Below are positions 135 to 15,167 of a stretch of DNA of 60,291 nucleotides, piece by piece. Source of the stretch: a virus (Duplodnaviria; Caudoviricetes); IMG/VR virus record IMGVR_UViG_3300045931_000347, positions 1 through 60,291 of that record; one strand, given 5' to 3'. A program made the position numbers and the translations under genes. Numbering within the stretch: position 1 is the first letter of the stretch; each line of letters opens with the position of its first letter. The notes under the pieces are model-generated. The model worked only from the letters and a program-made list of their open reading frames with translations, was not told the origin of the DNA and made no database searches.

Positions 135-515
135 CCGACGCCCTTATCCCCCGATCCCCCCCCCACGGAGAGTGACGGGTTAACCGTCCGTGACGACGCT
201 ACCCAGCGTGACCTCGCAGCGGTGGTGGGTCTCGGTGACCGGCGGGCGTCGTTGCGGGCGATCCGCGACATGTTGGCCGTGGAGGCGGACGACACGAAGT
301 GGTCCCGTCACAAGCGTGAGTGCCACTGCGTGTGTGGGATGAGCGATGCCCGGGTGAGAGTTGCGATCGCCAAGCAGCTGTGCGCCGTGATGGCAGAGCT
401 GGACGCGCTACCGGGCGGCGAGGAGGAGACGGACCTTGACCGCAACGGCGCTGCCGTCGCCGACGAGCTCGCCGCAGCCCGTGCGCGTCGGGAGTCAGGT
501 ACCGCGGCTTCGTAG
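84..515 (+). CDS. terS: Terminase small subunit (true start may be later)
   Basis: Overlaps terL start; helical pattern LRAIRDMLA...AIAKQL..VMAELDAL...DELAAARARR resembles actinophage TerS. Confidence 0.7.
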   Translation: MRVEGGGASTQNGHTGDPTPLSPDPPPTESDGLTVRDDATQRDLAAVVGLGDRRASLRAIRDMLAVEADDTKWSRHKRECHCVCGMSDARVRVAIAKQLCAVMAELDALPGGEEETDLDRNGAAVADELAAARARRESGTAAS

Positions 516-2019
516 TGTCCCGCCCTACTCGCGGGGGGTGGGGAAAGAGGCCGTCGACTTCATGGCCTCGATCGGCCGGCCGCTGGACGAGTGGCAGCAG
601 TTGGTCGCGATGGACATGTTCGGGATCAACGACGAGGGCCTGTGGGCGGCCTTCGAGGTGGTCCTGCTGCTCAGCCGCCAGAACGGCAAGGGCGCGGTGG
701 CGGAGTGCCGGGAGTTGTTCGGGCTCTTCCAGCTGCGGGAGCGGCTGATCCTGCACTCGGCGCACCTGTTCCGGACCTCGGCGAAGCATTTCCAGAAGTG
801 CCTGGAACTGGTGGAGGGCAACGACTGGCTGCGCCGGCGGGTGCAGAAGATCAACCGGGGTAAGGGGTCGGAGTCGATCCAGTTGATGTCCCGCTACGGT
901 GGGGGGCAGTTGGACTTCATCGCCCGGACCCTGGGGGCGGGGCGCGGTGAGACGGGGGATTGCACCGTCTTCGACGAGGCAGCCTGGATGACGGTGGGCC
1001 ACTACCAGACCCAGACGCCCACGCTGGCGACGATTCCGAACCCGCAGATCCACTACCACTCGACTCCTCCCGACGAGGAGATCGGGCCGATGCCTGAGGA
1101 TGCGATGCTGCCCTCAGTGCGCAAGCGGGGCAAGGCCGGCGATGACCGGGTGCTGTACCTGGAGTGGTCGCCGGAGCCGGACTCGGACCGGTCCAACCCG
1201 GACACGTGGTTCGCGTGCAACCCGTCGGCGTACTCCCACGGTCCCCCCGGCAAGGGGCGGCGAATCGCGCTGTGGTTCCTGCGCAAGCAGCACGACAACC
1301 TGGCCGCGGCGGGCAGGCTCGAGAAGTACTGCACCGAGCACCTGGGGGAATGGCCCCCGGACGAGGGCCCCCAGTGGTCGGTGATCACCAAAACGGACTG
1401 GCAGAACGCCGGGGATTCGAACTCTCAGGCCAAGGACCCGTTGGTGCTCTCGGTCAACACCACTTGGGAGCGGACCCACACCACCGTCGCCGCGGTCGGG
1501 GAACGCCCAGACGGCGATCTTCACGGCGAGATCATCGAGCACCGCATTCACGGGGGCTGGGTGATCCCGAGGGTGGTGGAGCTGGCGAAGAAGTGGCGCC
1601 CGGCCCAACTCATCCTGGATCCTGCCGGCGCGACGAACGCCCTGACCGCGGAGCTGAACAACGCGCTCAAGGCCGCCGACGTCTACGACTTCAACGGCAA
1701 CATGCTCGAGGTGACCCTCATGACGGCCCGCGAGGCCGCGGCCGGGTGGGCCATGGTCTACGACGCCCTGTCCTCGAGGAAGCGCGAGAACCCCGACGAG
1801 CAGCTGGCCGGGCGGAGACTCAAATGGCGCTCCGACGTCTGCGTCGAGGAGCTCACCGACTCGGTGCGGGGCGGCACCAAACGCCCTGTCGGTGAGGGGT
1901 TCGCGTGGGAGTGCAAGACCACCAGCGTGGTCATGTCCCCGATCAAGGCGCTGACGGACGCGGTGTACGGGTTCGTCACCCGCCCCCCGGACGCGATCGA
2001 GCCGTGGGTGTTCCGGTGA
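436..2019 (+). CDS. terL: Terminase large subunit
   Basis: LSRQNGKG Walker A, ILHSAH, VFDEA Walker B, W.ACNPS motif; upstream of portal. Confidence 0.93.
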   Translation: MTATALPSPTSSPQPVRVGSQVPRLRSVPPYSRGVGKEAVDFMASIGRPLDEWQQLVAMDMFGINDEGLWAAFEVVLLLSRQNGKGAVAECRELFGLFQLRERLILHSAHLFRTSAKHFQKCLELVEGNDWLRRRVQKINRGKGSESIQLMSRYGGGQLDFIARTLGAGRGETGDCTVFDEAAWMTVGHYQTQTPTLATIPNPQIHYHSTPPDEEIGPMPEDAMLPSVRKRGKAGDDRVLYLEWSPEPDSDRSNPDTWFACNPSAYSHGPPGKGRRIALWFLRKQHDNLAAAGRLEKYCTEHLGEWPPDEGPQWSVITKTDWQNAGDSNSQAKDPLVLSVNTTWERTHTTVAAVGERPDGDLHGEIIEHRIHGGWVIPRVVELAKKWRPAQLILDPAGATNALTAELNNALKAADVYDFNGNMLEVTLMTAREAAAGWAMVYDALSSRKRENPDEQLAGRRLKWRSDVCVEELTDSVRGGTKRPVGEGFAWECKTTSVVMSPIKALTDAVYGFVTRPPDAIEPWVFR

Positions 2020-2201
2020 CGCCTATGGTCGCCTCCGCCCTGGTCGGGGCCGGGGTCCTGCTTGTCGTCGCCGGGTTGGTGTGGCTGTTCGGGCCGTACG
2101 GGCTGCTGGGCTGCGGGGTCGTCCTGGTCACCCTGGGGCTGCTTCTACCGGTGAGGGAGCGGCGTGGCGAACCTTCTGACCCTGCTGCGCCGCAAGCCTG
2201 A
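2016..2201 (+). CDS. Small two-TM membrane protein
   Basis: GTGA overlap with terL stop; hydrophobic; sits between terL and portal. Confidence 0.6.
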   Translation: MTPMVASALVGAGVLLVVAGLVWLFGPYGLLGCGVVLVTLGLLLPVRERRGEPSDPAAPQA

Positions 2202-5200
2202 GATCTCCCGGCTGAGCCAGCAGGACGTCCTCGACCTGTTCGCGCAGCAGCCGTACCTGGGCTACTCCACCTCGGTCTACACCACGGGTGGGCGCAAGAC
2301 CGAGAAGATCCCCAACTCCTACGCCGCCTACGCCGAGACCGCCTACTGCTCCTCCAGCGTGGTCGGCGCGGTGATGCGGGTGCGGCGCGACATCTTCCGC
2401 CAGGCCCGGTTCACCTGGCGGGAGCAGACCGAGGACGGCACCGGCGTGCTCATGCACGACGACGCCCTGGCCGTGCTCGAACGCCCGTGGCCCAACGGCA
2501 CCACCGGCGAGCTGCTCGTCAAGATGATCACCGACGTGGATCTGTGCGGGAACAGTTTCATCGTCAATGAGGGCGAGCGGCTGCGCTGGCGACGTCCCGA
2601 CTGGATGTACCTGGTCCTCTCCGGTGACCCCGAGGTCGACGTGGACGTGGACGTGATCGGCTACGTCTACACCCCCGGCGGTTGTGACATCCGGCAGGGA
2701 ACCCCGTACCTGCCGGAGAACGTGTGCCACTGGTCGCCGATCCCGGCCTGGGGTGCCCAGTACATCGGCCAGTCGTGGATGGTCTCCGCCCTGAAGGACA
2801 TCCAGGCCGACAAGGCCGCCACCGACCACAAGCTCGCGTTCTTCACCAACGGCGCCACTTTGGGCCCGATCTTCGTCCTGCCGCCGTCGATGACGCCGGA
2901 GCAGTTCAAGAAGTTCCGCGAGGCCAACGACGAGGCCCACGTCGGCGCGGACAACGCCTACAAGCCCCTCTATATCGGTGGCGGGGCAACTGTGACGATG
3001 TCCGCGTCGACGTTTCAGCAGCTGGAGCTGAAGGCGACCCAGGGGGCCGGCGAGACGCGGATAGCCGCTCTAGCGGGCGTTCATCCCGCTATCGTCGGAC
3101 TGTCCGAAGGGCTGGGGGGCTCCTCGCTGAACGCGGGCAACTTCACCGCGGCCCGCCGGATCACCTCCGACATCACGATGATGCCGCTGTGGCAGGACGT
3201 GTGCAGCGCCCTGTCCACCTTCGTCGAGATCCCCGACGGCTACGAGCTGTGGATCCGCGAGTCGGCGATCCCGTTCCTGCGTGAGGACGCCAAGGACGCC
3301 GCCGACATCGCCTCAGTCAACGCGCAGATGATCACGTCGTTGGTGCGGGAGGGCTACGAACCCGAGTCGGCCCAGCGCTACGCGATCACCCGCAACCCGA
3401 CCGACCTCAAGCACTCCGGCCTCATGTCGGTGCAACTGCAGCCCCCGGGCTCCGAGCAGGTCGCCGAAGAGGAATCTGGTGGCTTCTACTTCGATGAGGG
3501 GCAGCCGCAGGACCTGACCACCTTGCGGTCCGAGCTCTTCCGCGACGCCCGGTTCGAGTCCCTGCACAAGCGGGGCCGCGGCGGCCGGTTCGTCAAGATG
3601 GTCGATCGGATCTTCGAGGCGTTGACCCAATGGGCCGACGCCGGCATGGACGATGACTCCGATCCGCTGGAGGGCTTCAAGCGCGAACACCTCCGCGAGG
3701 CACTGAAGGCGCGCGGCATCACCCCGAAGCGCGGGGGCACGGAGGGGGATTTCAAGGCCCAGCTTCGCCAGGACGTGCGGGACGTGGTCGGCGGGAAGAA
3801 GACCGCACCCACCCCGGTCAAGAAGGCAGCCAAGAAGGCCGCTCCGGAAGCTGTTCCGCGTGGGGTTGAGATCGAAAACGATATCCGCGCGGCCTTCCGC
3901 GACCTGGTGGGCCGGACCGACCTGCCAAAGCCGGACGGAGCGAACAACCTGCACGACGCCTTCCGCGAGGAGGGATGGGTTTCGCTCGCCGACATCCGCG
4001 ACGCCCTCGGCGAGAAGTTCAACCGCACCGAGGTGGATGCGGCGCTTCGGCGGATGGTCACCGGCGACGACCCGTCGGCGCGGGTCATCCCCCAGGCCGC
4101 CCGGCACGGGCTGATGCAACGTGACCACGATGCCGCACTCAAGGGATTCGGTGACGCGGACCAGCACTGGCTGAAGATCGCCGACCCGTCACCGCGGGCC
4201 GCGAAGCCCGACGAGAAGCCAACCCCAAAGAAGGCCACCTTCGACGCCGCCGACGTTGCCGAGCAGGTCGCGGCCCAGTCCTCCGAAGAGGACGTCATCG
4301 GGCTCCTGAGTGCTGACCCCACCCTCACGGCGGCGAAGCTCCGCAAGGTCGCCGACGAGTTGGACATCGACATCCCGGAGAACAAGCGGGCCAAGACCTC
4401 GATCCTGCTGCACATCGCCGAGCACGCACCGAGGGGTGACGCTAAGCCGAACCCCGACGGTCTTGACGGGATGGATGAGGCCAAGCTGCGCTCCTACGCG
4501 CAGGAGTGGGACATCCCGAAGGCCCGGGAGAAGTCGGCCGCGCAACTGCGCAAGGAGCTGCGCGAGAAGGGCATCGGCTCACCGGCGGTGGAGCAGGCCA
4601 AGCGTCGCGCGGAGGCCGGCCCGGAGCCTTCCAGAGAGAGCCTGTCGCAGGACGAGCCGACCCGGCGGGTGCAGATCCAGAACCGGATCCGGGCCGCCTA
4701 CTCCGACCTGCTCCGGGAGCAGGGCAAGCGTCCCCCGGACGAGTACGGGGGTGGCTGGGTCAACCTCGCCGACCTGCGGGACCGGCTTGCTGACGACCTC
4801 TCCCGCGACGAGTTGGACACGCATCTCGTGACGCTGGCCCGGGTCAAAGGGGTCCAGATAGTCCCGGAGTCCAACCAGAAGACGTTGACCCAGCGCCAAC
4901 GCGACGCCTCGATCATGATCGGCAACCAGGACAGGCATCTGATCTCGATCCTCGACCCGACCCCGAAGACGGCCGAGCAGTACCGGGACATGGGCTTTCC
5001 CGTCGAGGGCCCGCCCCACCCGTCGAGGGCCCGCCCCAAGGTTGACGTCCACGGGGACCTGACGCCCACGAAGAAGGCGCCACCGAGAGATCTACCCAGT
5101 GGTGGCGACATCGAGACGGTCGGAAGCGTCAAGGAACTCACTCTGACCCAGATCGCGCGAGGCGAACATCTCACGCCCGCAGGCCGCCGCGCTCTCGACG

Positions 5201-8040
5201 CACTAGGGCCGGAAGGTCACCCGCGCATCGCCGCTATTCCCGACACCGAGCAGAAGATCCGCGAGGCGTATCGCATGCTCGCGGTCCCCGGCACTGGGTT
5301 TGATCACTACGTGGCCTTCACCGACTTGCGGAAGCTCATCGGCGAGCAGGTGCCGCGAGCCGAAGTAGACGACACGCTTCGGCGGATGATGAGGATGCAG
5401 GGCGTCCACATCTCGCCACAGTCGTATGCGCGCGAGAACTATGAGACGCGAAAGCCGGCAGCGCTCATCCTGGGCGGCCAGGAGAACGACGCTATCTGGA
5501 TCGAGGATCCATCGCTTGCCCGGCCCCGGCAGTTCGGCGCCGTGGCCATAGCCGAGGAACTAGCGAACCGACGCAGTGGCGGCCCCCGTGACCCGATGAT
5601 GTCGTTGCTGTCCGACGCCGAACTGCAGGCTGAGGTCGACCGGCGGGCAGCGGCGGATCCCGTGGTCACGCACGACTTAGCGACGCTTCTTCCGGCCAAG
5701 GCGGCGAAGAAGGCGGTGCCTAAAGCTACACCCACCGACACCTCCATCCACCGCCAACTGGACGCGCGTGAGATCGCGAAGGGCCTCGGCTCTGAAGCCG
5801 ACTTCAAGCACGGCACCGGCAGCTACCTCGACGACGTGCAGAAGAAACTCGACGACGGCAAGACCCCAGGACAGGTCGCCCGGGAGGTGGAGGTCAGCGC
5901 CCAGACCTTGGAGAACTCCACCGCCATCCGCTACGGCGGGTCGGGTCAGAGCGCCTTCGTCGTCGACGATCCCGACTACCGGGCGCAGCAGCAGCGCCTC
6001 TACGACGAGGGTATGGCCAAGGTCCGACGACTGCGGGAATTGGCCGAGCGGTTGCGGGCCACGAGGCGGACGCGCGAAGGTGCGCCGGCCCAAAAGGCAG
6101 CTCCCGCTGCACCCGAACCCACCGACCTCACCTCCATCCGAGCACATCGGACCGCAGGCCGGGACCTGGCTGGCACCCTGGACTATGAAGGTCTCTGGGC
6201 CATCCCCTATGTTCAGGGCGAAGGTGATTCGTCACTAGCCGAGATCTGGCGCCAACAGGGCTTTGACGGTCCACCAAGGATGGTCAGTCGGACCGAGTGG
6301 GATCGACTCAAGGCGCAGGGCGGTCGGCCGATCTACCGGGGTGTCCGGGGACGCGTCGGCGGAATCTCAGCCGCGGAGATGGTGGATCGCTACACGAGCG
6401 GCGACCACTATCCCGGGGTTGGGGTGTTCGGGAACGGCTCCTATTTCACCGATAGCGCCAAGACCGCCGGTAGATACTCGACAAGCGAGGCGTATGGCCC
6501 GCTCGCGTTCAACGTGGGCGCCGAGGCGTTCGAGGGCAGCGCGGTCATAGAGGCGATGCTGCTTCCGGATGCCCGGGTGGTCGACTTCCACGATCTGCAG
6601 CGTCAAGGTAAGGCGTTGGGGGTACCCGATGGCTTTACTGGCGTTACCGACCCGCGCTCACTTGTGCTCGGCGACCCCGGCCGGTTGGCGGCAGCGCTGG
6701 GCTACGATGCGATCGTCATCCGAACAGGCGAGGGGACGGGGGACTACGGCAACGAGGTCCTGGTTCTCAACCGTACTGCCACGGCCGTTAGGGGGCCCGA
6801 TGGAGCCCGAGATGTCTCGTCGCCTGGCCGCGATTCTGGGCCTGCACCCAGTCTCGATGCGGGAGCGCCTCAGGGTGGTCGTGGCGGCCCAGCAGGCGCG
6901 AGACTGGGACCACCTTCCGGACGACGTCAAGGTGCTGCTGGCCGAGATCGAGCGCCGACCCAGGTAGGAGCCGAACCCACCGACCTCGCCTCCATCCGGG
7001 CACTGTCCGACCCCGAATCCATGCGTGACGCCCTGGACCTACGCAAGGTAGACGACCTCAAGGCACTGCTGCGCCAAGAGCAGCTGCCGGTGTCGGGACG
7101 CAAACGGGAACTGGTCGACCGACTGGTGGAGCACCTGTCGGGCTCGAAGCCGTCACCCGCGAAGGCGGCCAAGGCAGCAGTGCCCAAGGCGGGCGGGCGG
7201 GCGCCTGCCGCGCCGGTGGTGGCGCGGGACCTGTTCGACGCTGATGACGCCACGGTCACCACGGCCTTGCGGGACGTGTTCGAGGGCCAGTTCGGCCCCT
7301 ACACCACCAAGGTCCAGGTCCGCGTCACCCGCGCCGGCACCAGGGTCGACAAGCGGGGGCGTGAGCACAAGGTCGAACCGTCGATCAGCGTCGACGGCAA
7401 GATCTACGACGCGGATGGAACGGAGATCGGCTACTTCGGCCGCACGATCTCCCCGGTGGAGGTGCACTACCCCGACGGCACCGTGCGGCGCGAGGTCTGG
7501 GCCGACCACAAGATTGTCCAGCTCGGCGGCGGTGACTACGACACCGACCCGGCCCGCTACCACGGCACCGGCTTCGGTGGGGAGTTCAACCGCCGGGCGA
7601 TCGAGTGGTACCGGGCGTCCGGAGTCCACGGGATCAGCCAGACCGACGAGAACGGCTACGTGTGGGCGTCGCAGGGCTTCAACTTCAGCCGAGGCGGAAC
7701 GGTCCCCGACTACCTGGCCGACAACATCCGCACGTTGATCTCGGACCTGCGCGCCGGCAGGACCACCAGCGAAGCGACCAAGGACGAGTACCGCACCCTA
7801 CCGAAGCAGATCCGCGACGCCCCTGACCTGGATGCGCAGATCGCCGCCGCCGAGGAGCTGCTCACCCGGGCGTCGGGTAAGCCCGGAGATCCCGGGTACC
7901 CGACCGCGTACGAGATCTCCCAGCTCGGCCGCAGGCAGGGTCAGCGCGGCAAGGGCGAGGTGTGGTTGGGCAAGCTACTGTTCGTCTCGGCCGATGAGAT
8001 GATCCTCAACCCGGACTCGGGCGAGGTGGTAGAGAAATGA
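2164..8040 (+). CDS. HK97-type portal protein (about aa 1-430) fused to a multidomain cargo (3 winged-helix-like repeats, SAP-like, ART-like, GNAT-like)
   Basis: Portal motifs RPWPNGTT, DLCGNSFI, FFTNGA, IAALAGVHPAIVG; ART-like IYRG..GVFGNGSYFT..GYDAI..NEVLV; SAP-like KVDDLKALLRQEQLPVSGRKRELVDRL; GNAT-like YHGTGFGGEF..GYVWASQGFNF. Confidence 0.85.
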   Translation: MANLLTLLRRKPEISRLSQQDVLDLFAQQPYLGYSTSVYTTGGRKTEKIPNSYAAYAETAYCSSSVVGAVMRVRRDIFRQARFTWREQTEDGTGVLMHDDALAVLERPWPNGTTGELLVKMITDVDLCGNSFIVNEGERLRWRRPDWMYLVLSGDPEVDVDVDVIGYVYTPGGCDIRQGTPYLPENVCHWSPIPAWGAQYIGQSWMVSALKDIQADKAATDHKLAFFTNGATLGPIFVLPPSMTPEQFKKFREANDEAHVGADNAYKPLYIGGGATVTMSASTFQQLELKATQGAGETRIAALAGVHPAIVGLSEGLGGSSLNAGNFTAARRITSDITMMPLWQDVCSALSTFVEIPDGYELWIRESAIPFLREDAKDAADIASVNAQMITSLVREGYEPESAQRYAITRNPTDLKHSGLMSVQLQPPGSEQVAEEESGGFYFDEGQPQDLTTLRSELFRDARFESLHKRGRGGRFVKMVDRIFEALTQWADAGMDDDSDPLEGFKREHLREALKARGITPKRGGTEGDFKAQLRQDVRDVVGGKKTAPTPVKKAAKKAAPEAVPRGVEIENDIRAAFRDLVGRTDLPKPDGANNLHDAFREEGWVSLADIRDALGEKFNRTEVDAALRRMVTGDDPSARVIPQAARHGLMQRDHDAALKGFGDADQHWLKIADPSPRAAKPDEKPTPKKATFDAADVAEQVAAQSSEEDVIGLLSADPTLTAAKLRKVADELDIDIPENKRAKTSILLHIAEHAPRGDAKPNPDGLDGMDEAKLRSYAQEWDIPKAREKSAAQLRKELREKGIGSPAVEQAKRRAEAGPEPSRESLSQDEPTRRVQIQNRIRAAYSDLLREQGKRPPDEYGGGWVNLADLRDRLADDLSRDELDTHLVTLARVKGVQIVPESNQKTLTQRQRDASIMIGNQDRHLISILDPTPKTAEQYRDMGFPVEGPPHPSRARPKVDVHGDLTPTKKAPPRDLPSGGDIETVGSVKELTLTQIARGEHLTPAGRRALDALGPEGHPRIAAIPDTEQKIREAYRMLAVPGTGFDHYVAFTDLRKLIGEQVPRAEVDDTLRRMMRMQGVHISPQSYARENYETRKPAALILGGQENDAIWIEDPSLARPRQFGAVAIAEELANRRSGGPRDPMMSLLSDAELQAEVDRRAAADPVVTHDLATLLPAKAAKKAVPKATPTDTSIHRQLDAREIAKGLGSEADFKHGTGSYLDDVQKKLDDGKTPGQVAREVEVSAQTLENSTAIRYGGSGQSAFVVDDPDYRAQQQRLYDEGMAKVRRLRELAERLRATRRTREGAPAQKAAPAAPEPTDLTSIRAHRTAGRDLAGTLDYEGLWAIPYVQGEGDSSLAEIWRQQGFDGPPRMVSRTEWDRLKAQGGRPIYRGVRGRVGGISAAEMVDRYTSGDHYPGVGVFGNGSYFTDSAKTAGRYSTSEAYGPLAFNVGAEAFEGSAVIEAMLLPDARVVDFHDLQRQGKALGVPDGFTGVTDPRSLVLGDPGRLAAALGYDAIVIRTGEGTGDYGNEVLVLNRTATAVRGPDGARDVSSPGRDSGPAPSLDAGAPQGGRGGPAGARLGPPSGRRQGAAGRDRAPTQVGAEPTDLASIRALSDPESMRDALDLRKVDDLKALLRQEQLPVSGRKRELVDRLVEHLSGSKPSPAKAAKAAVPKAGGRAPAAPVVARDLFDADDATVTTALRDVFEGQFGPYTTKVQVRVTRAGTRVDKRGREHKVEPSISVDGKIYDADGTEIGYFGRTISPVEVHYPDGTVRREVWADHKIVQLGGGDYDTDPARYHGTGFGGEFNRRAIEWYRASGVHGISQTDENGYVWASQGFNFSRGGTVPDYLADNIRTLISDLRAGRTTSEATKDEYRTLPKQIRDAPDLDAQIAAAEELLTRASGKPGDPGYPTAYEISQLGRRQGQRGKGEVWLGKLLFVSADEMILNPDSGEVVEK
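4999..5038 (+). repeat. Perfect 20-bp tandem duplication inside the portal fusion gene
   Basis: CCCGTCGAGGGCCCGCCCCA at 4999-5018 and 5019-5038. Confidence 0.95.
6113..6145 (+). repeat. 33-bp direct repeat, left copy, flanking ART cassette
   Basis: CCGAACCCACCGACCTCACCTCCATCCGAGCAC; 31/33 identical to 6971-7003. Confidence 0.92.
6800..6967 (+). CDS. Overprinted 55-aa protein, candidate immunity/antitoxin for the ART-like domain
   Basis: ATG at 6800 (or 6812 with GGAG upstream); MEPEMSRRLAAILGLH...LPDDVKVLLAEIERRPR looks protein-like while the portal frame here is G/R/P/A-rich; stop falls just before the right repeat. Confidence 0.6.
   Translation: MEPEMSRRLAAILGLHPVSMRERLRVVVAAQQARDWDHLPDDVKVLLAEIERRPR
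6971..7003 (+). repeat. 33-bp direct repeat, right copy
   Basis: CCGAACCCACCGACCTCGCCTCCATCCGGGCAC. Confidence 0.92.
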
Positions 8041-8579
8041 CCGTCCCCGTGGTCCGCTCCGTCGCCGATCCGCAGACGGTGCGGCGTCAGAACGAGCTGT
8101 CCGACCTCTACCACGGCTGGCCCGCAGATGACCCAGATGATGATCCGGAGTTCGTCGCCCAGGCCCGGGAGATCATGGGCCTGGCGCCATTGGGCGAGGA
8201 GACCGCGGCCCGCAGTGGTGGGGACGTTCTTGATCTGATCATCCGCACCGCGGTCGACGAGAGCCTCACCCAGGAAGACCTCGACTTCCTCTACGAGGCG
8301 ATGCGGGCCGCCGGTCGCGACGTCACCCCCGGCCGCGACGAGTTGCACCACTACTGGACCCGGGGCGAGGGTTTGGCCAAGTGGGCGAGCTCACCTACGC
8401 CGTGGAGAACACTACTGGCCCAGCTGGTGGAGCACGTGAAGCCACCCAAGCCGCTGACGGTCCTGAAAAAGTGGACGTCCCGCTGGTTCATCGAGGTGTT
8501 TGGCTACGCCGCCGGGTCGGACAAGAATCGGGTCGCTCACGGCAGGCCGCCGCGCGGCAACCGGGTCGGGCCCGGATAG
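8037..8579 (+). CDS. Head-module protein; acidic N-terminus may be an immunity module
   Basis: ATGA overlap with portal fusion stop; LHHYWTRGEGLAKW segment resembles a domain of actinophage head-module genes. Confidence 0.65.
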   Translation: MTVPVVRSVADPQTVRRQNELSDLYHGWPADDPDDDPEFVAQAREIMGLAPLGEETAARSGGDVLDLIIRTAVDESLTQEDLDFLYEAMRAAGRDVTPGRDELHHYWTRGEGLAKWASSPTPWRTLLAQLVEHVKPPKPLTVLKKWTSRWFIEVFGYAAGSDKNRVAHGRPPRGNRVGPG

Positions 8580-8588
8580 GAGGTCCGG

Positions 8589-9134
8589 GTGGAGGCGCAG
8601 CGGCGCGAGTACAGGCGCGACCCGAAGGGCACCTCCACCGGCGGCCAGTTCACCGTCACCACCGGTTCGGCCCCCAGCAAGGAACGCCAAGGTCGCGCAC
8701 CCCGTCGGGTGCAGGAGCAGGTTGCGCCGGCCGCGTCACGGCGGTTCACAACCCTGTCCCGGGATGACGACAACGACGCCGCAACGGTCAAGGAGCTCCA
8801 GCAGGTCCTGACCGCACTCGGTATGGGCAGCCTGAAACTCGACGGGAAGTTTGGCCCCAACACCGAGGCCGCGGTCAAGGCGGCCCAACGCCGCCTGGGG
8901 CTCAAACCCACCGGCAAAGCCTCCAAGACGCTGGTGAACAAGCTGCTCAACGCCTACGACCTGTCCCCGTGCGTGAAGCGATCGGAGGACCCCATGAGCG
9001 AGTACGACATCCTCCGGGCGGTCACCGAAGAAGAGGTCGACCTCGACGAGGACCTGGAGGATCTCCTGGCCGGTCTGAGCGACGACGAGGTCGACGAGCT
9101 CGGCGCCCTGGCCGAGGAAGGCGGCGACGAATGA
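8589..9134 (+). CDS. Peptidoglycan-binding domain protein
   Basis: VKELQQVL..LG..DGKFGPNTEAAVKAAQRRLGLKPTG is a PGBD signature; AGGAGG RBS. Confidence 0.8.
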   Translation: MEAQRREYRRDPKGTSTGGQFTVTTGSAPSKERQGRAPRRVQEQVAPAASRRFTTLSRDDDNDAATVKELQQVLTALGMGSLKLDGKFGPNTEAAVKAAQRRLGLKPTGKASKTLVNKLLNAYDLSPCVKRSEDPMSEYDILRAVTEEEVDLDEDLEDLLAGLSDDEVDELGALAEEGGDE

Positions 9135-10063
9135 GCAGATTCAGTCGGCTGTCCGCAGCGCTGGCCAAGAGGGGCGCCCACGACCCCGACGCCCTGGCCG
9201 CGCACATCGGCCGGCGCAAGTACGGGCGGGCCGGTATGGCGGCCTTGGCGGCGAAGGGCCGGGCCCGCCACGCCAAGCGCTCCGAGACACCCCTCGGCGG
9301 GGAGATCATGCGTTACGACCGGATGTGGCCGCTGGATGACATCCTCATCCGCTCCGGCGGCGACGGACGCACCGTCGAGGCCTACGCGGCGGTGTTCGAC
9401 TCACCCAGCGAGATCACTGACCAGCACGGCCACTACCTGGAGGTCATCTCCCGCACCGCGTTCAACCGCGCCATCTCCCACGGCATCGACCGCATCAACG
9501 TCTTCTACAACCACGGGCTCAACCTGCACGGCACCCCGTCCGACCTCGGCTCGGTCCCCATCGGCTCCCCGGTCGACATCCGGCCCGACGGGCGCGGTCT
9601 GCGCACCGTCACCCGGTTCAACCGCAGCACGCTGGCCGACTCCGTCCTCGAGGCCGTCCGCGCCGGCGACATCAAGGGCTACTCGTTTAGGGGGAGGGTG
9701 TTCCAGTCCAACCCCGCCCGGGTCCCGAGAAGCCGGCCGGGCTCGCCGCTGCCGACCATCACCCGCACCGAGCTCGGCCTGGCCGAGTACGGCCCCACCC
9801 CCACCCCCGCCTACGCCGAGGCCGGCATCCTCGCCGTCCGCTCGGCCGCGGCGGTGGCCGCCCAGATCGTCTCACTGCCGTCAGACGAACGGGCCGAACT
9901 GGTACGCATGCTCGCCGTCTCCACTCCGCTCGACCCGGAGACGGAACCCGCCACTCCCGACGTGGGACCCGGCACCGAGGACTCGCCCGACGGGCGCTCC
10001 GGTCGGAACAGGGAAGCGATCGCCGCCATCCTCGGCGATCTCCGCACACAAGGAGTGCTGTAG
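9131..10063 (+). CDS. HK97-family prohead protease with basic N-terminal extension
   Basis: VEAYAAVFD..EVISRTAF..FYNH..IKGYSF..PTPAY motifs; directly upstream of capsid. Confidence 0.88.
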   Translation: MSRFSRLSAALAKRGAHDPDALAAHIGRRKYGRAGMAALAAKGRARHAKRSETPLGGEIMRYDRMWPLDDILIRSGGDGRTVEAYAAVFDSPSEITDQHGHYLEVISRTAFNRAISHGIDRINVFYNHGLNLHGTPSDLGSVPIGSPVDIRPDGRGLRTVTRFNRSTLADSVLEAVRAGDIKGYSFRGRVFQSNPARVPRSRPGSPLPTITRTELGLAEYGPTPTPAYAEAGILAVRSAAAVAAQIVSLPSDERAELVRMLAVSTPLDPETEPATPDVGPGTEDSPDGRSGRNREAIAAILGDLRTQGVL

Positions 10064-11533
10064 ATGGGCAAGAAGACCTCGGAGCGTCTGGCCGATGAGG
10101 CCGAGATCATCCGAGCCGAGATCAAGCGCATCGGCGAGTCCGACGAACCGTCCGAAGACGACGTCATCCTCGCCGGCGAACTGGCCGAGAAGCTCAAGGG
10201 CAAGGAAGTCCAGCGCCGCCAGGCCATCGCCAATGAGGACCGGCTGGAGGAGATCCTCGCCGCCGCATCCACCCCGGCCCGCCGCGAAGGCGTCGGCGCA
10301 CCACAGATCGTCCGCAAGGTCGACCCCTACGACGAGGACACCTACAAGGAGCTGCAGCGCAGCCTCTACAACGGCGGCGCCGAGCGGGCCTCCTTCGACG
10401 TGGACTCCATCGTCAGCCGGGCCAAGTACGCCGCCGAAGCGGCCCCCAAGGAACTGTTCGCAACCGACAAGCAGCGCGACGCCGCCGCCGAGCGGGTCAT
10501 GGCCCTGCTGGAGATGGACAACATCCACGCCCCGCTGATCGCCCGGCACATCCTGCTCACCGGCTCCGAGGACTACCGCAAGGCCTTCCGCGAGTACGTG
10601 CAGTCCGTGGGCAACTACACCCCCGAGCTGCTGCGTACCGCGATGAGCCTGACCGCCGGCAACGGCGGCGTGCTCGTGCCGGTGTTCCTGGACCCGACGA
10701 TCATCCTCACCAACGCCGGCATCACCGGCCCCATCCGCTCCATCTCCACCGTCAAGACCATCGCCACGAAGGAATGGGACGGGGTCACCTCCGCCGGCAT
10801 CTCCGCCTCCTGGACGGCAGAAGGCACCGAGACCGCCGACGCCACCCCCACCTACACCGGCCCCACCATCACCCCCAAGAAGGCCGACGCCTGGGTGTTC
10901 GGCAGCTACGAGGTGTTCCAGGACTCCGGCTTCGCCGCCGAACTGGGCCGCCTCCTGGCCGACGCCAAGGTCCGCCTCGAAGAGGCCGCCTTCGCCACCG
11001 CCAACACCGGCGCCACCCGCCCCCGCGGCGTCGTCGCCGCAGTCCAGGCGGTCACCGCATCCATCGTCACCTCCGCCACCACCAACGCCTTCGTCATCGG
11101 CGACGTCTACAACACCTCCGACGCGGTCAACCCCCGCCAGGAGTCCTCGATGGCCTGGCTCGCCCACAAGAAGATCTTCAGCAAGGTCCGCCAGTTCGAC
11201 ACCTCCGGCGGCGGCGGCTTCTGGGCCAACCTCGGCATGGGCCTTCCCCCGCAGCTGCTCGGCGCCGCGGCCCTGTCCTGCTCCTCGATGACCTCGGTGG
11301 TCTCCACCGGCGCGAACATCCTCCTCGCCGGGGACTTCTCCCAGTACTACATCGTGGATCGAGTCGGAATGAGCGTCATTTACGACCCCGTTATCCGATC
11401 AACGGGCAATAACCGGCCAACAGGGCAGAGTGGCTGGTATGCTTTCTGGAGAGTTGGGGCCGACGTCGTCAACAGCGACGCTTTCAGGCTCCTTCAACTT
11501 AATCAAGTGGCGGCGGCCACCGCCCTCGGCTAG
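10064..11533 (+). CDS. Major capsid protein, HK97 fold
   Basis: N-terminal coiled coil, GGVLVP, WTAEG, GDFSQYYIVDRVGMS, GWYAFWRVGA. Confidence 0.93.
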   Translation: MGKKTSERLADEAEIIRAEIKRIGESDEPSEDDVILAGELAEKLKGKEVQRRQAIANEDRLEEILAAASTPARREGVGAPQIVRKVDPYDEDTYKELQRSLYNGGAERASFDVDSIVSRAKYAAEAAPKELFATDKQRDAAAERVMALLEMDNIHAPLIARHILLTGSEDYRKAFREYVQSVGNYTPELLRTAMSLTAGNGGVLVPVFLDPTIILTNAGITGPIRSISTVKTIATKEWDGVTSAGISASWTAEGTETADATPTYTGPTITPKKADAWVFGSYEVFQDSGFAAELGRLLADAKVRLEEAAFATANTGATRPRGVVAAVQAVTASIVTSATTNAFVIGDVYNTSDAVNPRQESSMAWLAHKKIFSKVRQFDTSGGGGFWANLGMGLPPQLLGAAALSCSSMTSVVSTGANILLAGDFSQYYIVDRVGMSVIYDPVIRSTGNNRPTGQSGWYAFWRVGADVVNSDAFRLLQLNQVAAATALG

Positions 11534-11566: not shown

Positions 11567-12412
11567 ATGGAACCACTCATTCCCGCACTGGTCACGTGCT
11601 CCGAACCAGGCTGTGACCGACCAATCCACAGCAAGGGCTTGTGCCAACCGCACTACCGTCAGGCTCGGCGCAAAGTCACCGCGCCGGATCTGAACTGCGT
11701 GCGATGCGGCACCCTCATCCCCTCGGGCCTGATTGGCCGGCGCCGGCAGTACTGCAGCGAAGAGTGCCGTAAGCCCAAGGCCAATCGCGTGCGTACGACA
11801 GACGCGGCGTGCATCGAGCCCGGCTGCGATCGGTACCCGAACGGCGCCCGCGGCTACTGTCGGCCGTGCTACCACAAGCACAAGAACGCTGGTGACTTCG
11901 GTGGCGAGCTCTGCACCGAGCCCGACTGTGAAGGGCTCGCGTACGGGCACGGGCGCTGCAGAAAGCACCTTTGGCAAGCGCAAGAGTCCGGCCTGATTCC
12001 CCGCCCAGCCTGCTCGGTAGAGGGTTGCGGAAGGCCGAGCAGGGCGAACGGCCTCTGTCAGCGCCACCTGATGCGGGTCAGGACTCACGGCGAGCCCGGT
12101 GAGGCGGCGGCCCGGAGGCGCGCCAGCGGCGAGGGCCACCTCTCGAGAGTCGGCTACATCGACATCTCCGTTGGCGGTCGGAAGATCGGCCAGCACCGTC
12201 ACGTGATGGAGGAGCACCTCGGCCGGTACCTCTGGCCGTGGGAGTCGGTGCACCACAAGAACGGGCGGCGCTCGGACAACCGGCTGGAGAACCTTGAACT
12301 GTGGGTGCGGGGTCAACCCGCAGGCCAGCGGCTTGAGGACCACATCGCCTTCATCGTCGAGCACTACCCCGAGGAAGTACGTCAAGCACTAGCGAAAAGG
12401 AGCTCGCCATGA
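11567..12412 (+). CDS. Free-standing HNH endonuclease with repeated Cys/His zinc motifs
   Basis: [30 protein letters not shown]; four CxxxxC..GxCxxH/C repeats. Confidence 0.9.
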
Positions 12413-12821: not shown

Positions 12822-12840
12822 TCTATGCCTGGGAGATGGA

Positions 12841-13095
12841 ATGAGAGATCTGGCACTTACCGAGGCCGAGCGTCGGACGCTCGCGTATGCCGCCCAGCGC
12901 GAGGCGGCCAACGAGGAAGATTTCCGCTACTGGCACCCAGATCCGGTCGAGCGCGAGCGGCTACGCAAGCGCTGGCGGGAGATCGCCGGTGTGCTGCTCG
13001 ATCAGGAGCCCGCCCGCCCGCTGGCCGAAAGCATCGCGGACGCGGTCGCGGAGGCAACGGCCAACCCCGGCCGCATCGTCGAGGCCCAGCCATGA
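12841..13095 (+). CDS. Hypothetical protein
   Basis: GGAG upstream; ATGA overlap with next gene. Confidence 0.55.
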   Translation: MRDLALTEAERRTLAYAAQREAANEEDFRYWHPDPVERERLRKRWREIAGVLLDQEPARPLAESIADAVAEATANPGRIVEAQP

Positions 13096-13850
13096 GAGAT
13101 CCGAACGAAAAGGTTGTGGTGGCGTTCCTGCACGCCGGCCAGTGGGAGTCCTCGTTCGGGGAGTCCCTGGTCAACCTGCTGATGTATGACGTGGCGCTGC
13201 ATCGGCGGATCGTGCACGGCGGCGGGTGGATGGCGGTGCAGGCTTCGGCGAACCTGGCCGGGCCCCGCAACGGGCTGGTCAGGCAGTTCCTCAACTACGG
13301 CGCCGCGGACTGGTTGTGGATCGTCGACTCGGACATGACGTTCTCCCCGGACACGCTGGAGCGCCTGCTGGAGCACGCCGACCCGGACCGGGCCCCGATC
13401 GTGGGGGCGTTGTGTTTCGGCTTCGACGACAAGGGCGAGGTGCAGCCGACCCTGTACGGGCTGGATGGGGACGAGTCCGACCCGGAGCATCTGGGGGTGG
13501 TCCGCTACCACGAGTGGCCGCCGGAGACGATGATGCAGATCGCGGCCACCGGCACCGGGTGCATCCTGGTGCACCGCGGCGTGTTCGAGCGGATCCGCGA
13601 CGTGCAGCTGCCCAACCGGGACCGGCCGGGGTTCAACGACGCGTTCCCGTGGTTTCAGGAGACCGAGCACAACGGCTCGCCGGTGGGGGAGGACATCACC
13701 TTCTGCTGGCGGGCGGGTCTGCTGGAGATCCCGGTGTACGTGAACACGGCGGTGCAGTGCGGGCACGTGAAGAAGCGGCTGCTGACCGCCGAGTCGTACT
13801 TCCTGGGGCGGGGGCTGCTGTCCCCCCAGCACGCGGGGGCGGCGGTATGA
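13092..13850 (+). CDS. Glycosyltransferase (GT-A fold)
   Basis: PRNGLV..WLWIVDSD (DxD), TGTGCILVHRGVFE, GEDITFC, GHVK. Confidence 0.85.
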   Translation: MRDPNEKVVVAFLHAGQWESSFGESLVNLLMYDVALHRRIVHGGGWMAVQASANLAGPRNGLVRQFLNYGAADWLWIVDSDMTFSPDTLERLLEHADPDRAPIVGALCFGFDDKGEVQPTLYGLDGDESDPEHLGVVRYHEWPPETMMQIAATGTGCILVHRGVFERIRDVQLPNRDRPGFNDAFPWFQETEHNGSPVGEDITFCWRAGLLEIPVYVNTAVQCGHVKKRLLTAESYFLGRGLLSPQHAGAAV

Positions 13851-14309: not shown

Positions 14310-14481
14310 CCGACTTCCGACTCTCCCCGAGGGGCAACATTGGTTGAGGCTCGCGGTGCCCGTCCCCGACACATGTCGCGATCCTTCCAGCGCCGATCAG
14401 CGAGAGCTTGTCAGGCAAGCCGTGCTTGAGGCACTCGATGCCCTCCTCGCCGAGGGCATCGAGTGGGAGCTGACGCCATGA
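14302..14481 (+). CDS. Hypothetical protein
   Basis: Coupled ORF MFDRLPTL... Confidence 0.45.
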   Translation: MFDRLPTLPEGQHWLRLAVPVPDTCRDPSSADQRELVRQAVLEALDALLAEGIEWELTP

Positions 14482-15167
14482 CCGACCTCGTCGTCATCGT
14501 GCCCTCCCGGGGTCGTCCGGAGGCCGCGCGGCAACTGGCCGAAGCGTTCCGCGCTACGGCGACCGGCTCCGCCTGGCTCGTGTTTGCCGTCGACGCCGAC
14601 GATCCGTCCGACTATGAAGGCGCGGTCGTCGAACCTCAGTTGGCGTCGGTGCTCAAGGGTGCTAGCCGCTGCATGGGCGAGGCGCTTAATGCCCGCGCCA
14701 CCGGCTTCGCTGAGATCGGTGAGGACAGCCCATTCGCAGTCGGGTTCATGGGTGACGATCATCGCCCACGCTCCGTCGGGTGGGACAAGGCCTACCTCGA
14801 CGCCCTGCGAGAACTGGGGACGGGCATCGTCTACGGCAACGACCTGCTGCAGGGGGAGAACCTGCCCACCCAGTGCGCGATGACCTCCGACATCATCCAG
14901 GCCCTCGGCTACATGGCACCGCCGTCGCTGAGGCACCTCTACATCGACAACTTCTGGAAGATCCTCGGCAACGGGGCGGACTGTCTGCGCTACCTGCCTG
15001 ACGTGATCGTCGAGCACGTGCATCCGATGGCGGGCAAGGCCGAGTGGGATGCCAACTACGCCCGGGTCAACTCCGCCCAGATGTACGAGCACGACAAGAC
15101 CGCGTTCGAGGAGTGGCTGCGAACGTCGATGGTCTCCGACGTGGCGAAGGTGCGGGCACTGCGGTGA
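14478..15167 (+). CDS. Glycosyltransferase (GT2-like)
   Basis: VVIVPSRGRP, FAVDADD, FMGDDH, HLYIDN, IVEHVHP. Confidence 0.82.
   Translation: MTDLVVIVPSRGRPEAARQLAEAFRATATGSAWLVFAVDADDPSDYEGAVVEPQLASVLKGASRCMGEALNARATGFAEIGEDSPFAVGFMGDDHRPRSVGWDKAYLDALRELGTGIVYGNDLLQGENLPTQCAMTSDIIQALGYMAPPSLRHLYIDNFWKILGNGADCLRYLPDVIVEHVHPMAGKAEWDANYARVNSAQMYEHDKTAFEEWLRTSMVSDVAKVRALR

Follow-up and report, generated by a model that had tools for sequence, protein, structure and literature searches.

Why would a tailed phage continue its portal gene, without a stop codon, into enzyme-like and DNA-binding-like domains? The question is raised by the open reading frame (ORF) at 2164..8040 of a Caudoviricetes genome, IMG/VR record IMGVR_UViG_3300045931_000347; the window analysed here is the whole of this record, 60,291 bases, which is 100% complete per CheckV and has a G+C content of 66-72%. 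An initial annotation, made from the sequence alone, had described the ORF as a portal protein fused to a polyvalent effector cargo with an ADP-ribosyltransferase (ART)-type domain and a C-terminal GNAT-like domain, and had proposed that the portal itself carries up to 12 copies of these enzymes into the head and possibly into the host. We find that the only portal gene of the phage continues in frame through a short junction tag, Lys/Ala tracts, three repeats, SAP-type helices, an ART-like domain, a SAP domain and a GNAT-like domain, and that relatives hold the same modules as separate genes behind the portal or in other fusions, on two unrelated families of portals. Behind the ART-like domain, in another frame of the same DNA, lies a small conserved partner gene. 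We consider it probable that the product of the long ORF is a portal-anchored polyvalent head-cargo protein.

The identity of the carrier is clear. The Pfam family Phage_portal (PF04860) matches residues 89-383 with 96.1 bits as against a cut-off of 39.1, and the PHROG portal family phrog_12 spans residues 52-385. A six-frame search of the whole record returned one PF04860 match (100.6 bits) and, because the record is complete, the long ORF represents the only detectable portal gene of the phage; the parallel search with the Mu-type portal family (PF06074) is uninformative, as its control matched in no genome. A MuF domain (PF04233) was found at E ≤ 1 neither in the protein nor in the record, with a control that was positive in 8 of 14 genomes and with PF06152 and the MuF3/MuF4 profiles not separately searched. 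The single portal match together with the lack of a MuF domain bears out the proposal that the portal itself is the carrier. When the protein was compared by tblastn with 50,697 isolated phages, 68 records matched, none of them over 80% of the query, and in the 40 best of the 68 the similarity is confined to residues 1 to about 434. The best portal relatives belong to Rhodococcus, Gordonia and Mycobacterium phages, and the two isolated-phage portals that were inspected are stand-alone proteins of about 470 amino acids (aa) each. These relatives and a G+C content of 68% make an actinobacterium the probable host of this soil phage.

The ORF starts with GTG and comprises 1958 codons without an internal stop, and its sequence was recovered in contigs of four soil-metagenome runs. 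In one run (X2) a single contig covers 2000-8200 without a difference, and in a second (X1) pieces span 2437-4171 and 5674-7235; either of these may be the source sample. A further run from another sample and another study (X4) contributes pieces at 6640-6833 and 6958-7306 with no other letters and no gaps, one of which crosses the end of the ART-like domain without insertions or deletions. In some runs the listed pieces cover the stretch incompletely, and all counts refer to listed pieces, none of which, in any of the four runs, holds an insertion or deletion. The long open frame seen in the initial annotation stands, and the motifs, tracts and domains that it had named were all located where it had placed them.

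The extension has many relatives. A HMMER search with residues 1301-1958 against 1.84 billion representative proteins gave 1251 matches at E ≤ 1e-3; P0003 is the query itself, and the following architecture counts cover 149 other listed matches. Among these, 56 are at least 700 aa long, and of the 56, 13 start with a portal like that of the query (P0006 with only the last part of it) and 4 with a Mu-type portal; at least 17 other long proteins thus bear related cargo on portals of the unrelated families PF04860 and PF06074. Three Portal_Mu (PF06074) carriers of 1566-1694 aa (L004, L005 and L007) contain the ART family, the first two also SAP, and a protein of 790 aa (L009) joins a PF04860 portal to a domain of this ART family. 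Conversely, among 80 IMG/VR loci with a related portal, the portal is fused in 4, unfused in 71 and unclear in 5. The closest portal relative (L030, 68% identity) is a fusion with a tag and the ART family of the query, L031 carries a variant tag and the repeat domain, and the 760-aa fusion of L082 a variant tag and a further domain with what we take to be R-S-E-type ART motifs. Comparison of the portal C termini, as suggested in the initial annotation, therefore confirms the swapping of cargo, which differs among the fused L030, L031 and L082. A search of viral contigs with residues 1323-1958 as a single protein found no relative.

Portal and cargo meet at the junction tag, whose pattern matches 45 of 152 proteins (a set that includes P0004-P0150). 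It lies at residues 8-13 in many stand-alone homologs and at residues 466-496, that is at the junction, in portal fusions. Among 78 loci with an unfused portal, 10 have a next gene, no more than 400 nucleotides (nt) past the portal stop, that begins with the tag (L032, L036, L038 and L050 are among the tagged loci); at their ends, such tagged post-portal genes carry either the GNAT-like domain of the query (L036, L050) or, with E 5.6e-21, ADPrib_exo_Tox (L032). The latter gene, at 4015-5355 of L032, encodes an ART of the classical exoenzyme type with a variant tag after a related portal. Together with the motifs that we assign to L082, it implies that two different ART families use the same slot. 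The simplest reading of these arrangements would be that the portal gene has become fused with a tagged cargo gene behind it. By analogy, the tag may be a capsid-loading signal: the capsid-targeting sequence of phage T4 provides the model, and the T4 protein Alt is loaded by such a sequence at its N terminus.

A candidate -1 frameshift that would yield a short portal was considered and dropped. The heptamer CCCGGGC (3445-3451) lies at the end of the portal domain and is followed 17 codons on by a stop in the -1 frame, and L030, the one close relative in which its conservation was checked, has CCACCAGGT there.

Residues 1328-1545 are predicted to form an ART fold. The AlphaFold model, based on an alignment of 36 stand-alone homologs, has a pLDDT (predicted local distance difference test score) of 89.7, and its listed Foldseek matches in the PDB are, though weak, nearly all ARTs (tankyrase, diphtheria toxin, exotoxin A, RES, NatT). 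In the BFVD, 28 matches were found at E ≤ 1e-3, the best being uncharacterised phage proteins (E 1e-14) and several being annotated as ART-PolyVal, and 23 of 30 Atlas neighbours of the model are ART-PolyVal clusters. The motifs IYRG (residue 1390), GNGSYFT (1423), GYDAI (1513) and GNEVLV (1529) lie at nt 6331-6765; R1392 on strand 1 and Y1427 on strand 2 are invariant in the family, and E1531, which opens the fifth core strand, is kept in the nearest relatives. This Glu, which is that of the NE.LV motif in the initial annotation, is not conserved across the family. For the ART call as a whole, the predicted fold and the structural neighbours agree with that annotation, whereas no Pfam cut-off was reached. 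Unlike the ART-PolyVal family, for which the passages of PMC5512222 (Iyer 2017) on polyvalent proteins give the active-site configuration H-Y-D, the domain has R-Y-E and fails the PF18760 profile, which places it outside that family; within its own family, 2 of 37 members match the ART-PolyVal profile, with a best E of 0.034. Sequence searches gave no match to the domain among isolated phages (tblastn, E ≤ 1e-3) and, with either the domain or its family profile, nothing below E 0.02 in the PDB. Tandem arrays of the ART family without a partner occur in L008 (six copies, 3120-9158) and L022 (five copies, 2566-7668).

A further element of the locus, absent from the initial annotation, is the 55-aa partner gene, which overlaps the Gly/Pro/Arg/Ala-rich linker of the carrier (residues 1546-1601). 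The G+C content at third codon positions (GC3) in this region is 0.41 in the carrier frame (6799-6966) as against 0.87 in the +1 frame (6800-6964), and all 36 of 36 stand-alone ART homologs stop within about 20 residues of an invariant Asn-Arg, exactly where the +1 frame begins. When a profile of the partner was run against the fetched loci, 13 of 13 matches, from loci of which four are near-identical to one another, lay no more than 210 nt downstream of an ART domain, which is the position of a small gene co-occurring directly downstream of a toxin domain in toxin-immunity pairs; 13 of 41 complete ART domains have such a partner. Most loci have the partner as a gene of its own, 54-63 aa long, behind the ART stop. 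A profile search of a collection of 5.8 billion proteins retrieved 40 partner clusters of 46-85 aa that belong to no Pfam family and are named 'hypothetical' or, in one case, 'transposase'.

The same nesting is found in L004, which has a Mu-type portal and is 58% identical over the stretch of ART and linker: here too the partner lies in the +1 frame, behind AGGAGG. Between the two viruses, differences at partner codon positions 1/2/3 number 11/14/29; read in the partner frame, the two share 32 of 54 aa, and read in the carrier frame, 21 of 53. This pattern indicates that the partner frame is under purifying selection and that the carrier frame need only stay open; by our estimate, a frame with about 90% G+C at its first position would be open over 56 codons more often than not. 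A tblastn search of isolated phages with the partner gave only chance-level matches (E ≥ 4), and its profile found nothing below E 0.02 in the PDB.

In L030, the partner module forms the first 55 residues of a 1208-aa ORF (4488-8114) directly after the portal-tag-ART gene; this ORF also holds two more tags, another ART-family domain and a terminal homolog of the gene at 8037-8579 of the window. Prediction of a complex between the ART domain and the partner gave a score of 0.50, compared with 0.00 for the best of three controls. This is weak support: 58 of 80 solved complexes passed the mark, as did 2 of 110 mismatched pairs, but at scores of up to 0.60 only 7 of the 80 solved complexes did so, together with both passing mismatches; the runs agree in at least 79% of contacts, with a partner pLDDT of at least 81. 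That the partner is an inhibitor of the ART domain is in our view the single likeliest role, though short of even odds; that it is a docking piece seems possible and less likely, and the rest of our expectation goes to some other role.

How could such a gene have come to lie inside a carrier ORF? Two direct repeats, likewise absent from the initial annotation, suggest an answer. The second copy encodes the normal start of the SAP module of relatives (DL.S[IL]R.L...), whereas the first encodes the same start in truncated form, with the ART domain behind it, and the stop codon of the partner lies 4 nt before the second copy. None of 100 shuffles of the sequence gave two matches to the repeat. 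Because the spacing of the copies, 858 nt, equals 286 codons, the reading frame is kept. GC3 is 0.737 in the ART part (residues 1328-1544), 0.89 in the SAP-GNAT part (residues 1614-1958) and 0.89-0.92 in the flanks, and the lower value of the ART part fits a recent arrival. We read this as a cassette of ART and partner which would have been inserted in frame at the SAP-module start of a carrier of the type portal-tag-...-SAP-GNAT, with loss of the ART stop; as this stop is absent, the carrier frame reads through the partner gene as the linker. A wider proposal, which we put forward as possible rather than probable, is that ART and partner are a mobile toxin-antidote-like cassette hopping between unrelated portal carriers by short-homology recombination, that the same DNA encodes both a disordered linker of a polyprotein that is injected and, by way of its internal ribosome-binding site, a controlling or docking protein, and that the cassette and the HPR..G.F tag are parts of a modular actinophage cargo-loading system.

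The C-terminal domain of the ORF was modelled with a pLDDT of 92.6 and matched in Foldseek mostly GNAT enzymes and toxins (nourseothricin acetyltransferase, OrfE, GmvT, AAC(2') and KacT; E 7e-4 to 2e-2, probability 0.97-1.00), with template modelling (TM) scores to the target of only about 0.4 and with BPI-fold (SPLUNC1) proteins within the top ten rows. The motifs YHGTGFG (residue 1799) and GYVWASQGF (residue 1831) lie at nt 7558-7680. The domain contains R1798-Y-H-G-T-G1803, where relatives carry Q-G-x-G-F-A, and we take R1798-x-x-G1801-x-G1803 to be GNAT motif A, the acetyl-CoA loop R/Q-x-x-G-x-G/A. A conserved subdomain of about 90 aa follows the GNAT-like fold, and the domain as a whole forms the very end of many long proteins. 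Its homolog in L036 matches Acetyltransf_1 with E 0.005 and 17.6 bits as compared to a gathering score of 20.7, and a sequence search of the PDB with the domain found nothing below E 0.02. The assignment to GNAT made in the initial annotation is thus supported by the predicted fold and by R-x-x-G-x-G, but not by any match at a Pfam cut-off.

Between portal and ART cassette, and again before the GNAT-like domain, the extension is built of other modules. Lys/Ala tracts occur at residues 553, 1178 and 1667, and the three repeated domains are homologous to one another (pairwise blastp E 4e-8 to 7e-13). The repeated domain is of unknown family and possibly helix-turn-helix (HTH)-like: an Atlas search with copy 2 retrieved unnamed clusters at 0.85, one of them labelled helix-turn-helix, which is a lead only, and a sequence search of the PDB with this copy gave nothing below E 0.02. 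Pfam searches of ten segments of the protein returned weak matches only, while the SAP domain (PF02037) scores 38.9 bits against a gathering score of 23.9. With a predicted ART fold, a GNAT-like fold, SAP and three repeats, the polypeptide combines two or more domains of disparate predicted activity, as polyvalent proteins do. GC3 over 5014-6111 (residues 951-1316) is 0.795, compared with 0.88-0.92 upstream; a later arrival is possible for repeat copy 3, too, and for the unknown region that precedes the ART cassette. The features of the locus are collected in Table 1.

Table 1. Coordinates of the long ORF, its parts and the surrounding head genes in the window
Feature	Position	Strand	Basis or remark
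Single 1958-aa ORF, portal and polyvalent extension	2164..8040	+	Open frame, contigs
Portal domain, aa 1 to ~450, PF04860	2164..3513	+	Pfam, PHROG, tblastn; GC3 0.918
Junction tag FESLHKRGRGGRFVK, aa 464-478	3553..3597	+	Pattern [WF]-x-[PE]-x-x-H-P-R-x(2-10)-G-x-F
Repeated domain copy 1, aa 567-681	3862..4206	+	blastp of 150-aa segments
HeH / Rho_N / RecX-like helices, aa 720-812	4321..4599	+	Weak Pfam matches below cut-off
Repeated domain copy 2, aa 834-940	4663..4983	+	blastp of 150-aa segments
Repeated domain copy 3, aa 1027-1138	5242..5577	+	blastp of 150-aa segments
Direct repeat copy 1, 33 nt	6113..6145	+	Encodes truncated SAP-module start (EPTDLTSIRA)
Predicted ART-fold domain, aa 1328-1545, R1392/Y1427/E1531	6145..6798	+	Model, Foldseek, Atlas; GC3 0.737
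AGGGGG ribosome-binding site	6790..6795	+	4 nt before partner ATG
Partner gene, 55 aa, +1 frame relative to carrier	6800..6967	+	ATG 6800, stop 6965-6967
Direct repeat copy 2, 31/33 identical	6971..7003	+	Starts 858 nt after copy 1
SAP domain, PF02037, aa 1624-1658	7033..7137	+	Pfam
GNAT-like domain and conserved extra C-terminal subdomain, aa ~1690-1958	7231..8037	+	Model, Foldseek
Terminase large subunit	436..2019	+	
Head-module gene, function unknown, 180 aa	8037..8579	+	
PG_binding_1 protein, 181 aa	8589..9134	+	Between cargo and protease
Prohead serine protease, Peptidase_S78	9131..10063	+	
Major capsid protein, Phage_capsid, HK97-type	10064..11533	+	

The long ORF sits among the virion genes of a terminase-portal phage, namely those for terminase, S78 protease and capsid protein. 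The head-module gene that follows it has a homolog in L030, where it forms the terminal part of the second cargo ORF. The next product starts with a tag-like N terminus (YRRDPKGTSTGGQF), matches PG_binding_1 at E 1e-14 and has a tail that is strongly acidic; it may be another head-carried or scaffold-like protein. An HNH endonuclease gene (11567-12412) lies directly after the capsid gene and is followed by glycosyltransferase-like and methyltransferase/glycosyltransferase-like genes (12825-13850 and 14463-15167; all PHROG matches).

If the protein is head cargo, its path would run as follows. Twelve copies would be assembled through the portal domain with their extensions inside the head; at about 165 kDa per extension, this would amount to a load of roughly 2 MDa. 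Head loads of this order are carried by other phages. The partner would bind the ART domain, whether to inhibit it in the producing cell or to serve for docking. Cleavage by the S78 prohead protease, or another cut, would then free the cargo, which would leave with the DNA and act on host targets or coat the incoming DNA.

Several observations weigh against such a role. The Foldseek matches of the ART model in the PDB are weak (best E 7.6e-3, TM 0.33-0.39), ART-PolyVal (PF18760, gathering score 31.2 bits) has no match in the record at E ≤ 1, the PARP profile reaches only E 0.02 on the ART-like domain, short of any Pfam threshold, and residues 1663-1958 match no Pfam family at E ≤ 10. The strand-5 position is occupied across the family by E, Q, Y, W, T or H, and arrays of five to six ART copies occur; both observations are as compatible with a domain for binding or structure as with an enzyme. 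The greater part of the extension is made up of modules that are DNA-binding-like or unknown. As to the partner, 28 of 41 complete ART domains have none within 210 nt, and its fusion in L030 to a long cargo ORF, as the N terminus, is odd for a pure immunity protein. Finally, no protease cleavage site was identified.

Could the extension, then, chiefly have a structural role inside the head and organise the DNA there, as MuF or gp7 would, with ART- and GNAT-like domains that serve as inactive scaffolds or binding modules? Its Lys/Ala tracts, SAP and HTH-like repeats would in that case retain or accompany the end of the genome at the portal. The record lacks a MuF gene and the extension is located where muf genes lie according to the gene-order passages of PMC5576092 (Jamet 2017), SAP exceeds its Pfam cut-off, and one BFVD match of the ART model is named capsid maturation protease and MuF-like fusion protein (E 3.3e-6). 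The variable Glu at the catalytic position and the tandem arrays point the same way, as does the GNAT-like protein being a regular post-portal gene in some unfused relatives. Then again, this protein and its nearest relatives retain R, Y and E at the three ART positions, and in the GNAT-like domain R-x-x-G-x-G is preserved and the invariant residues are spread over the fold. A bona fide ADPrib_exo_Tox occupies the same slot in relatives, and the presence of a dedicated, conserved partner hints at an activity in need of control. We therefore regard a purely structural role as rather unlikely.

A second alternative concerns the +1 gene, which would be a docking adaptor instead of an inhibitor and would, as the head is assembled, link a second cargo protein to the ART-like domain on the portal. 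The architecture of L030, where the partner module is the N terminus of the 1208-aa cargo ORF after the portal-tag-ART gene, speaks for this, and the complex prediction weakly favours binding. Yet the partner is free, 54-63 aa long and ended by its own stop in the other nine distinct loci, and the 40 partner clusters are all short; a free 55-aa protein has nothing to dock, which makes this alternative improbable. That the long ORF is an assembly or sequencing artefact joining a portal, a cargo ending in ART and a SAP-GNAT part would explain the low carrier GC3 over 6799-6966 and the usual end of ART homologs at this point, given that so G+C-rich a first codon position would by our estimate often keep a frame open by chance, but is already largely refuted, and very improbable, in view of the identical sequence in contigs of four runs with no insertions or deletions among listed pieces (one piece, over 6640-6833, from another study), the same read-through in L004 on a different portal family, the cassette length of a multiple of three and the many independent fused relatives.

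How does a portal-anchored head-cargo protein compare with known systems? The idea is less novel than the initial annotation implied, as the kind of fusion is already known from computational work: the passages of PMC5512222 on polyvalent proteins include effector domains (PBECR, 2H, InPase) fused to portal domains, describe ARTs in one or many copies and GNAT next to ART, and predict packaging and injection. Like these proteins, ours combines enzyme-like and DNA-binding domains in one polypeptide in the head/packaging module of a terminase-portal phage; it differs from them in a GNAT-like family with an extra C-terminal subdomain. In the same passages neither a junction tag nor a partner nested in another frame is mentioned, and the supplementary architecture lists of that paper may hold similar cases. 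With MuF polymorphic toxins of temperate phages, as treated in the sections of PMC5576092 on muf genes, the locus shares a gene right after the portal position, variable C-terminal toxins including ARTs, and a toxin and small ORF that move as a module; a small ORF follows 89.4% of muf toxin genes, among the 191 counted there. Here, by contrast, there is no MuF domain, it is the portal that bears the cargo, the toxin-like domain occupies an internal instead of a terminal position, and the carrier ORF itself contains the small ORF, in the +1 frame. A literature search for a nested immunity gene returned nothing relevant, though the tables of PMC5576092 and the supplement of PMC5512222 may hold similar architectures. 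Actinobacteriophage genes annotated as 'Portal and MuF-like fusion protein' in PMC9584339 and PMC9584337 likewise fuse the portal to the next head gene, with a MuF-like partner domain that is absent here. T4 Alt is a head-packaged ART of the R-S-E clade that is injected with the DNA and modifies host proteins, according to its treatment in PMC5512222; unlike Alt, which is a free protein, the ART-like domain described here is covalently joined to the portal. This variant is set apart by an R-Y-E ART family and the partner that goes with it, by the nested position of that partner inside the carrier ORF, found in two viruses whose portals are unrelated, by the cassette between direct repeats and by the junction tag.

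Head-packaged effectors let a phage act on the cell before its own genes are expressed, and to our knowledge laboratory work has been done on very few of them. If cargo is attached to the portal, it would have a set copy number and position, so that its packaging, processing and ejection are open to virion proteomics and cryo-electron microscopy. The locus also offers a concrete case of a toxin-type cassette that was absorbed into a larger ORF with its partner retained, and a gene caller that accepts the long ORF hides the nested partner gene. With a tag in common and modules exchanged between two families of portals, these phages may point to a cargo system that is general among soil actinophages.

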